This document shows, piece after piece, positions 51,794 to 54,700 of a stretch of DNA of 64,000 nucleotides (positions within the stretch are counted from its first letter, which is position 1; every line of letters starts with the position of its first letter). Under the pieces are notes generated by a model. That model did no database searches, was not told the DNA's origin, and was given only the letters and a program-made list of their open reading frames with translations. A program made the translations under genes and the position numbers. The stretch lies in assembly GCF_018977255.1 (NCBI RefSeq), contig NW_024704777.1:372001-436000 (forward strand). Reading direction: 5' to 3'. Source of the stretch: Callorhinchus milii. Taxonomy: Eukaryota.

Positions 51794-54700
51794 ATGGAGC
51801 CATTGTTTCTCATCTTCCGTGAGTATTGTTGCTAACCCAAACACATTGACGGCCCAGCTTGAGAAATGGACAGCATAGGGGAGTGAGAGGCTTCCTGTTT
51901 GAACCTCAACTCTCCTTTCTACCTCACACGCTGTGCCTTCAACCACATTCGCAACATTACCCGACCTTGCCATTGTTTCAATCTACAGGCAAAGGAAACC
52001 GAACTTCAAGCCTTTATAACATCCCGGTTTGCCGACGCAAACACATTGCATATCACCCAGAACTCTGCAGCCCGTGTCATATTCTCCATCGGAGTATATG
52101 ACACTTTGCCTCCACCCTCTTGTACTCCACTCTGCAGTCCCTTTCCTCGCCCCTTCCTTGCTTCCTTCACGATCCATCTCAACACCCTCCTCATTGATCG
52201 TGCTTTCGAATAGCCTCCGTCAGCACCAGCTCTCAAAACACCTTAACTCGGTTATCAGGTAAGGTACGAAAAACTCTTTTGACGTGCAAGGTCAAATATA
52301 TTTTCGTGTTGTTGGTAGAGGAGATGCGGGAGGGCTAGAGGGTAGAACGGTAAAAGGAGTAAGTGGCGAGTGAGGAAAGAAGGAAGAGAGAGGATAGAGA
52401 GGAGAGAGGAAGAGAGAGAAGAGAAGGCAGAGAAAGGAGAGATGTCAGACATGGAAGCGGAGAGCTACCAGAGAAAGGAGAGAGGAGTGGAGCGTGAGGG
52501 GATAGAGAAGAGAGGGAAATGGTTTTCTTAAGTAATCCCATCAGCTACTCTCGATTTCTCCATCGTGTCTGTGCTGGTAGTAGACCCCAATTTGGAGCTC
52601 CCTATTCTAATCCCATTCCCTGTCTTCTCTCTCACGATCGAGCCTGAGTTTGTGTTCACACCCCCACTGGAGCGTTTTATGTTGATGGCCTTAAATATCT
52701 GCCCTGTAGTGAAGGACGGACTACTCATTGTGTGGGAGACCGGGGAAATCATATCACTGATTGTGCGAAATACCGTATTAGTACTTCCTGCATTGATCTT
52801 GTTTTTTTTTCTTGTACAGTGATATTTCTGGAGAGAAAGACGGTGGATTGTGTAGGCTAGTGACACAATCTCACAGCCAGAAGCTGACGTGGGAACATTA
52901 GCTACTAAGAGTGAAACTCAGCCTCTCTTCACCTCCAACTGGGGAATACGAAGAGAAACCATCATACAATCGACAGAGCAAGTTAGTAAGCAGGTTCCCA
53001 CATACCCCGTATCCCTCGTGCCCTCCGTTCCACCACTAGTGACAGAGCTTTGAGGCACTACAACCCGAAACTCTAAAAAAAGTACGTCTATATTTCCGCC
53101 TTGCAAATTCATGCTTTGCCTCGGTCAAGCGGACGGTGCTCGGTGTGCGGATGGGGTAGGGAGGTTGGGGCTGTGCCTTGGAGGTGTTCTTCCCTATGTT
53201 GCTGTACATGGGGCATGTCGTCTGTGCTTGGGGTGTGGAGATCGCGTTGCCTGGGTGTCTGTGCCTGGGAGTGGGAAATTATGCATGGGCGGGTGTGTGG
53301 TTTGGGAGTGGGGGTGCTGGCCATAGGTGGGGAGCCACTGGGGCTGGGAATGTGCGTGATGTATGTGCTGTGCCCTAGGATGTAGATTTGTTCCACGGGG
53401 TGAGGACTGTGCAATTGGGAACGTGTGGTGCTGCGCCCTGGCGATATCGGTGCCAGAGGACATGTGCGCTGTGAGGTAGCTGTTTCTGGGGTCTATGCCC
53501 TGGTAGAAATGAACTGGAAGCTTGACTTGGGGCTGGTGTCTGGGGCGGTGGGAAATGGTGCATTGGGTGGGGGATGATATGCCCTGTGGAGTCTGGCTGT
53601 GCGCTGGAGGAGGATCTGTCCTTTGGGATGTGATTTGGCCCTGGGCTCCTGCGTCTTGGGGTGATCTCTGCCTGGGTGGGTCTGCCTTATGTGGGATTAC
53701 CCATAGGTGTTGGCCGAGCCACGGTGTGACTTGACGTTGGAGAGCAACATATATATATAAAATAAAGTGTAATAATATAAAATATAATATTATAATATAG
53801 TAGGTCAATCTAAAATGTTGCATAATATCAGAATACAAAATAGTGTTTTGTTTGCAAGTGTAGTTTAAATAATACAGAGGTCTAAAAAACCGTTACTATC
53901 GTTATGACACGCGGGTTGTGGACTGTATATAGACAGAAGTGTCTGCATCTGTTAAAATGAATATTATTCTTGTTTATGCCCCAGACATGCTCCCAGTATG
54001 ACAGGCCTCCCATTGTATTGTACTTTCCTGGTTGATTGGACGTGAAGTCAAACAAGAAACAGACTCTTTATATTGGGTGTGATATTTTACAGAGAGTGCG
54101 AGTGTGAGGTTGGTGAATGGCAGCAGCCCGTGTGCCGGGAAAGTGGAGGTTCACTACGACGGACAATGGGGCACAGTGGATGGCGATCTGACCGAGAATA
54201 TGTTACTTAATCTCAATGACGATGCCTGGGAAAGGTTCAACTATGAATTTGGCATTGAGGATAACACGATCGAAAACTTTGGATATAGCGATCTGATGTG
54301 GGATGTGGATACATATGACGGCTACGAAGCAAGTGGCTATGGCACAGTGGAAGGCTCTGGCTTTGGTCTGACCTGGGAAATGGCGGCCGCGGCTGTGATG
54401 TGTAAAGATTTGGGCTGTGGAGCCGCGCTGTCAGCACCAGGAGGCGCTCACTTTGGGAGGGGCTCAGCGCCCATTGTGACGTATGGTGTTCAGTGCAGAG
54501 GGAACGAGACGTCTCTGCGGGATTGTCCCTCAGGGACATGGGGTCACTATTCCTGGTCACACACCAATGATGCCGGTGTCATCTGCTCAGGTAAAGAATC
54601 CTGTCTATGTTCATCACGTCGTTCTTGGATGGGAGTGGTACGGAATGTTGACCACGGTATTGGTGTGGGGGTGGGAGCCCGGAAGGGAGCCCGGGAGGGA

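Follow-up and report, generated by a model that had tools for sequence, protein, structure and literature searches.

Variable tyrosine-rich loops on six-cysteine SRCR domains of LILR-like receptors in the chimaera Callorhinchus milii, and one copy with a 70-residue loop

Ruminant WC1 and the CD163 family are germline multigene group B SRCR receptors whose variable N-terminal domain has been proposed to bind patterns, according to an extract of PMC2681482. Single domains devoid of C2 and C7 are known among them, and CD163 domain 8 of mammals lacks this same pair (extract of PMC2906472). The extract also agrees with the preliminary description of this DNA that C2 pairs with C7 in canonical group B SRCR domains. 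CD163 provides the best solved matches of the profile of the chimaera family described here. In contrast to WC1 and CD163, the variable domain of the chimaera has six cysteines and a loop of variable length, exists in about 100 copies versus roughly 13-15 genes, and occurs in one chain with Ig domains and with tails of two opposing types, so that the ectodomain of gene A is not all-SRCR.

The second point of comparison is the LRC. Its receptors are marked by a second leader exon of 36 nt and by either tails with ITIMs or a transmembrane segment that has an Arg close to its start and is followed by a short tail; the pairing of ITIM-type with Arg-type members is the LRC pattern. The chimaera family resembles LILRA/LILRB, PIR-A/B, NKp46, GPVI and chicken CHIR in its Ig type, its 36-nt leader exon and its division into ITIM and Arg-transmembrane forms, but its proteins bear an SRCR head, and the likeness is one of sequence. 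Wang, Belosevic and Stafford reportedly named one elephant-shark gene LRC-like in Immunogenetics in 2021. In the extract of one survey, shark genomes including that of the elephant shark have neither LRC homologues of the C2-only kind nor an FcR gamma chain (PMC4016189); the family provides candidate NK/myeloid paired receptors for cartilaginous fish, for which that extract lists none.

The union of SRCR and C2-type Ig domains in one chain is widespread in chordates (fish proteins P0073 and P0142; Atlas clusters) and is found in rodent FcRLS (extract of PMC4016189). In P0073 and P0142, however, the SRCR domains are canonical, with eight Cys and a loop of 9 residues. The novelty of the chimaera family lies in its diversified six-Cys head and not in the architecture as such. 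The chimaera family is WC1-like at its head and LILR-like at its tail, and a full member of neither group.

The window, a 64,000-nucleotide stretch at G000:C36:372001-436000 of the C. milii assembly, contains two genes of this family, A and B, whose SRCR exons are arranged head-to-head within duplicated segments. The elements of gene A are as follows.

43030..43054, minus strand: leader exon 1 (predicted)
41354..41389, minus strand: 36-nt leader mini-exon
39226..39564, minus strand: six-Cys SRCR exon, 339 nt, 112 aa, with a Tyr-rich 17-residue loop at 39490-39440
35207..35491, minus strand: Ig exon 1, spliced to Ig exon 2 in an X7 contig
33666..33950, minus strand: Ig exon 2, best solved relatives LILRB2, LILRB1, PIR-B and NKp46, spliced to the transmembrane exon in an X2 contig
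33104..33202, minus strand: uncharged transmembrane exon
starts at 32890, 31703 and possibly 30397, minus strand: small tail exons
29567..29653, minus strand: last coding exon, which lacks the two Tyr found in ITIM-type motifs of the family

Gene A is thereby laid out as leader, mini-exon, SRCR, two Ig exons, uncharged transmembrane exon and tail. The junctions between its Ig exons and between Ig2 and the transmembrane exon are spliced in contigs of RNA-type runs, all from one study, and an RNA-type contig over 39376-39564, the loop included, differs from the genome by 0 letters. The best model of its SRCR domain reaches a pLDDT of 92.7, the other four of five lying at 34-36, and compares with DMBT1/CD163 at a TM of ~0.87.

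The SRCR exon of gene B is distinguished by its loop.

54093..54590, plus strand: gene B SRCR exon, six Cys (without C2 and C7), 498 nt, 165 aa, AG/GT ends, phase 1-1
54167..54376, plus strand: acidic/aromatic C2-site loop of 70 residues (family norm 9-17), with the native loop end at ~54341-54376
54170..54184, plus strand: 15-nt loop-entry repeat, copy 1, from repeat comparison and shuffles
54341..54355, plus strand: 15-nt loop-entry repeat, copy 2, from repeat comparison and shuffles

Alignment to CD163 and DMBT1 bears out the earlier claim that each domain keeps six cysteines; C2 and C7 are absent, at the sites after WGTV and ahead of the final H-x-x-D-A-G-V. The insert of 53 aa that had been described in gene B, in frame and with no stop, is likewise borne out. 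Measured from the Trp of WG[ST]V to the next conserved Trp, the loop spans 70 aa in gene B versus 17 aa in gene A. Exons A and B match PF00530 alike with 88 bits and each is a single phase 1-1 exon; with the fold of gene A, this places them among group B SRCR domains.

A search of the assembly with both exons, in which the best 150 of 430 and the best 150 of 702 candidates were scored, led to 158 places. Thirty gave no parse; 142 domains were parsed in the fetched DNA and 3 were dropped as false. The remaining 139 divide into 25 domains with both C2 and C7 and 114 with neither. At least 114 copies of the six-Cys SRCR exon are present in the assembly, across 47 contigs, many of them small; these are assembly copies, not genes, some probably being alleles, and haplotigs may be counted among them. 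At least 7 of the 114 contain stops. All 25 eight-Cys domains of this set have a C2-site loop of 9 residues. The six-Cys loops, by contrast, measure 9 residues in 25 copies, 10 in 13, 12 in two, 13 in one, 14 in 56, 15 in six, 16 in seven and 17 in three, placing 113 of the 114 within 9-17; the 70 residues of gene B are the only exception. The usual change in loop length is an indel of 1-8 codons. The 30 places without a parse are for the most part broken or partial copies, and their longest loop has 19 residues. In three of them the C7 side bears an acidic, Tyr-rich insert 18-22 residues long, a parallel to gene B across the lost disulfide.

G000:C774:24762 and 29525 (L065), G000:C150:117439 (L052): C7-side insert copies, one with a stop

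The six remaining cysteines (C1, C3, C4, C5, C6 and C8) are invariant in alignment A2, which comprises 103 intact six-Cys domains with gene B left out, in keeping with the six to eight Cys and the C1-C4 pair by which the PMC2906472 extract defines group B. A FastTree from which the C2 loop was left out places 95 distinct six-Cys domains of the chimaera with one Heptranchias domain (support 0.995), and this cluster is nested among elasmobranch six-Cys domains. Databases divide this one family under unrelated labels, its copies being called DMBT1-like, M130-like, IGSF1-like or OSCAR-like. No account of it was found in the literature searched; it may be mentioned in subscription papers or in the supplement to the elephant-shark genome paper.

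The exons downstream of the SRCR head are those of an LRC-like receptor. The Ig domain finds its best solved match in LILRB2 (E 3e-10), followed by PIR-B, LILRB1 and NKp46; it is of the LRC C2 type and has at least 150 matches in the assembly. In a protein search, 23 of 23 Ig matches came from one species, but the search was word-limited and does not imply absence from sharks. The 36-nt leader mini-exon is present in 30 of 30 copies read. Nine of the 13 last exons parsed (17 fetched) contain an IxYxxL ITIM, whose Tyr is missing in gene A and three close relatives. The Arg-type transmembrane exon yields 28 matches at E<=0.003, gene B and 27 others, many on contigs that also carry SRCR copies; the Arg is present in all 7 translated exons (12 fetched), and no meaningful PDB or Pfam match was found for this exon. 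The family includes, as judged by sequence, both inhibitory ITIM and activating Arg-transmembrane members. The genome has one PF11628 match (CD3 zeta / FcR gamma type), at locus L181 (G000:C4), and Arg-type members may signal via such a zeta/gamma adaptor. Genes A and B and the annotated paralogues depart from the Ig-only ectodomain of LRC receptors by their SRCR head; P0123 and some other paralogue models are Ig-only.

Several copies deviate from this plan. The subgroup of gene A, which includes L183-L185, is without both tail tyrosines that other copies retain; it is neither clearly inhibitory nor clearly activating and perhaps acts as a decoy. At G000:C135:16000-62500, a single SRCR exon precedes well over a dozen matches to the Ig exon, all on its strand; the array may encode one very long receptor. 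The database model P0133 (contig of 240910 bases) combines SRCR, Ig and PRY/SPRY domains and may be a gene-prediction fusion.

The interpretation that we favour, and regard as probable, is that the six-Cys family consists of diversified, selected heads with Tyr-rich loops on LILR-like paired receptors, gene B among them. Loss of the C2-C7 pair would have come first and would only have permitted the loop to change. In place of the usual calcium-binding face, the domains carry variable, positively selected tyrosine-rich loops, and the resulting SRCR-headed, LILR-like membrane proteins likely function as paired receptors for pathogens, some inhibitory and some activating. Gene B would likely be of the activating type, its loop having likely reached 70 residues by duplication of loop segments. 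The family would likely constitute an inherited antibody-like repertoire for sensing pathogens. A stronger version is put forward tentatively, at rather less than even chances: a germline antibody-like repertoire of ~100 SRCR domains on paired LRC-type receptors, in which gene B is expressed, Ig-less and activating and probes ligands with an acidic arm of 70 residues. If true, paired LRC signalling would date to the last common ancestor of jawed vertebrates, and the SRCR domain would be a natural diversifiable binding scaffold. The family lends itself to direct testing, with a single exon per domain, many natural loop variants and both signalling classes.

Gene B as a transcription unit includes three further elements.

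51794..51818, plus strand: leader exon 1 (predicted), homologous to the leader of gene A and to the N-terminal part of two annotated paralogues, P0126 and P0155
52820..52855, plus strand: 36-nt leader mini-exon, with a GC donor at 52856-52857
62220..62368, plus strand: Arg-containing transmembrane and short-tail exon, given to gene B by position and phase, splice predicted

The SRCR exon presumably joins the exon at 62220. A search of the window and of the 20 kb beyond it found no Ig exon for gene B, which would be a receptor of the Arg type devoid of Ig domains. Contigs of runs X5 and X6 cross the insert at background depth, with 1-3 letters different and no skipping joint, so that the insert is genomic and not an assembly error. 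No RNA run is listed as containing gene B. Contigs of runs X1 and X2 at exon B cover its conserved flanks only, derive from paralogues and are silent on expression of gene B. One X2 contig, over 54104-54184, has 1954 nt, high word depth and a gene-A-like Tyr loop not identical to that of gene A; it represents another paralogue or allele in run X2. Gene B may be expressed. Its loop carries a net charge of -15 and four Tyr, each with 2-4 acidic and at most one basic neighbour. Tyr with acidic neighbours is a typical setting for sulfation, and the loop is possibly tyrosine-sulfated. The structure prediction of the gene B domain is poor (pLDDT 44.8), and a fold search on it was therefore set aside; the insert is likely a flexible acidic protrusion. 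No protein matches gene B over its full length among 48 database matches of 90-289 aa, and Atlas returned generic SRCR clusters only, all under 0.9.

The strongest competitor, somewhat short of an even chance, accepts the family as real and diversified but holds that gene B is decaying and that its insert, GC donor and absent Ig exons are accidents. The GC donor behind the mini-exon is peculiar to gene B, the other 29 of the 30 copies read having GT; together with the lack of an Ig exon nearby and the poor fold prediction, it may be a sign of decay. The gene B loop exceeds every other in length, and a DNA search of the assembly found no second copy of the insert, which matches its own locus only. 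Numerous copies of the family are, moreover, broken. Against decay, the four predicted exons of gene B give an open frame of 235 residues with all six Cys, and the insert has stayed open although its repeats have diverged, an outcome equalled in just 77 of 5000 base shuffles. Skipping of the mini-exon would preserve the frame, and the C7 side acquired long acidic loops independently. On balance, the chance that gene B is a live gene is about even or a little better.

A ~3 kb G-rich degenerate repeat with a GAGCACA-like word lies in the intron behind each SRCR exon (36100-39100 and 54700-57550). These repeats could promote unequal crossing-over.

The variation of the family is concentrated in defined parts of the domain. 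Alignment A2 shows high entropy in three places, namely the C2 loop, residues 77-78 and the C7-side loop; single peaks are scattered over the rest. The C2 loop contains 15.3% Tyr and 47% Gly+Ser, in contrast to 1.6% Tyr in the framework, and the C7-side loop 12.3% Tyr and 11.7% Trp. The preliminary description had proposed to tabulate loop length and dN/dS across paralogues, and both bear out its expectation of diversity, the latter at the level of regions. For 51 independent paralogue pairs, taken from a tree built without both loops, length differs in the C2 loop in 20, in the C7-side loop in 16 and elsewhere in 3. Pairwise dN/dS is 1.71 (1.21-2.63) in the C2 loop versus 0.45 (0.40-0.52) in the framework, 0.88 in the middle stretch and a near-neutral 1.14 (0.89-1.53) on the C7 side. 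The 31 pairs of equal loop length have 65 nonsynonymous and 4 synonymous loop differences (Fisher p 6e-6). The loop's synonymous rate is low, and use of the framework pS brings the C2-loop ratio of these 31 pairs down to 1.93 (1.13-3.19). A codon model gives omega values of 1.83 for the C2 loop, 0.57 for the framework, 0.89 for the middle and 0.98 for the C7 side; lnL falls from -1562.4 to -1590.4 when the C2 loop is constrained to an omega of 1. All are values per region, with an ambiguous loop alignment and gene conversion uncontrolled. The C2 loop is under positive selection.

These values bear on an unlikely reading in which constraint was relaxed once the disulfide and the calcium site had been lost and the loops vary for that reason, with the SRCR domain a spacer and the Ig domains binding as in LILRs. 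The C7-side and middle values near 1 agree with it, and six-Cys domains elsewhere appear looser as well, since among cluster representatives the loop is not 9 residues in 19 of 88 six-Cys versus 15 of 634 eight-Cys domains, counts that include parse noise and two chimaera domains. Relaxation does not account for a C2-loop dN/dS above 1 by three estimates or for the strong Tyr/Gly/Ser enrichment, and near gene B there is no Ig exon to do the binding.

Loss of the disulfide does not by itself explain the loops. The suggestion that its loss freed a diversity loop is sustained insofar as length varies among paralogues and is invariant in eight-Cys domains, but the loss is old and not sufficient. 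All 22 elasmobranch six-Cys domains among database proteins keep 9 residues, contrary to relaxed constraint, which makes the loss permissive and not the cause. The 9-residue loop is also present in 20 of 22 other six-Cys domains from the databases and in 898 of 912 distinct eight-Cys domains among non-chondrichthyan matches, samples biased to long multi-SRCR proteins. A search with gene A for longer proteins and one of cluster representatives were both dominated by proteins with several SRCR domains. Long loops in eight-Cys domains of other species were parser artefacts spanning two truncated domains in the cases inspected.

The variable stretches coincide with a known binding surface. DMBT1/SALSA, which has the same fold, consists of near-identical repeats and binds via calcium on acidic residues. 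In an extract of PMC7043408, its surface cations are held by D1019/D1020, D1058/D1059, N1081 and E1086, and mutation of D1019 or D1020 abolishes binding. The same extract contradicts the view that GRVEVxxxxxW is the DMBT1 ligand region: the motif is buried, and the two Asp after Cys2 bind. These cation-ligand positions coincide with three variable stretches of the chimaera six-Cys domains, which thus map to the DMBT1 ligand face. Mapped by Cys offset, the site-2 triad of D1019, D1020 and E1086 is kept in full in 0 of 114 six-Cys copies versus 9 of 25 eight-Cys domains, so that the six-Cys copies lack the full acidic triad of a DMBT1-type calcium-dependent SRCR domain. The variable loop takes the place of the DMBT1 cation site, on the known ligand face of the SRCR fold. 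Six-Cys loops presumably bind ligands, and these are presumably microbial. SRCR domains of vertebrates have a near-invariant loop length and bind mostly via calcium; the chimaera family uses the fold differently.

It is highly improbable that the gene B insert is a small intron removed by splicing. Five in-frame GT-AG pairs of 54-132 nt do lie within the loop, but their donors score 5/9 and their acceptors have 5-7 pyrimidines in 14, as against 6-7 and 7-12 at the splice sites of gene B itself, ranges that touch. No in-frame GT-AG pair would remove the 171-nt unit that separates the repeats, and the coding frame is the only one in which the insert is open.

The insert likely arose by repeated copying of loop segments followed by divergence. 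The tandem duplication proposed earlier is upheld at both ends of the insert but weakly in its interior, and a clean tandem array is not shown. The 15-nt repeat is present, with 93% identity at a spacing of 171, and arises in 6 of 500 codon shuffles. The final ~36 bases of the gene B loop are an ordinary family loop. Three in-frame pieces inside the insert resemble the loop end, the top two being reached in 8 of 500 shuffles; the interior compares with paralogue loops at 3 of 300 shuffles, but a framework control does so at 7 of 300. The 9-nt repeat gcgatctga does occur twice, as stated; codon shuffling, however, yields an exact recurrence of some 9-mer in 1003 of 5000 cases, and by itself this repeat is no evidence of duplication.

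Antibody CDR-H3 loops, including the ultralong loops of cattle and sulfated acidic forms, are rich in Tyr, Gly, Ser and Asp; they vary in length while their framework is fixed, and include a rare, very long form. The chimaera loops share the composition, the variable length, the fixed framework and the one very long case, but the term CDR3-like is apt for their paratope-like composition only. They differ from CDR-H3 in being germline-encoded within one exon, and the gene B loop has no Cys knob. That RAG-type recombination diversifies them as true CDR3 analogues is scarcely credible: an exact RSS heptamer stands at the loop entry in 79 of 114 six-Cys exons (0 among the commonest variants of the 25 eight-Cys exons), but it is merely the G-T-V codons, nonamers at 12/23 spacing score at most 4/9 (6/9 in two copies), no better than controls, and each loop lies whole in its germline exon, the gene A RNA-type contig being identical to the genome. 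The reading of the loop entry as an RSS was rejected, there being no usable nonamer 12 or 23 bases from the heptamer-like codons. With neither segments flanked by 12/23 RSS nor any other recombination signal, the diversity of the loops is germline.

The window also contains two single-exon seven-transmembrane ORFs, at 14533-15468 (plus strand) and 22337-23155 (minus strand), which we take to be of a kind expanded in cartilaginous fish.
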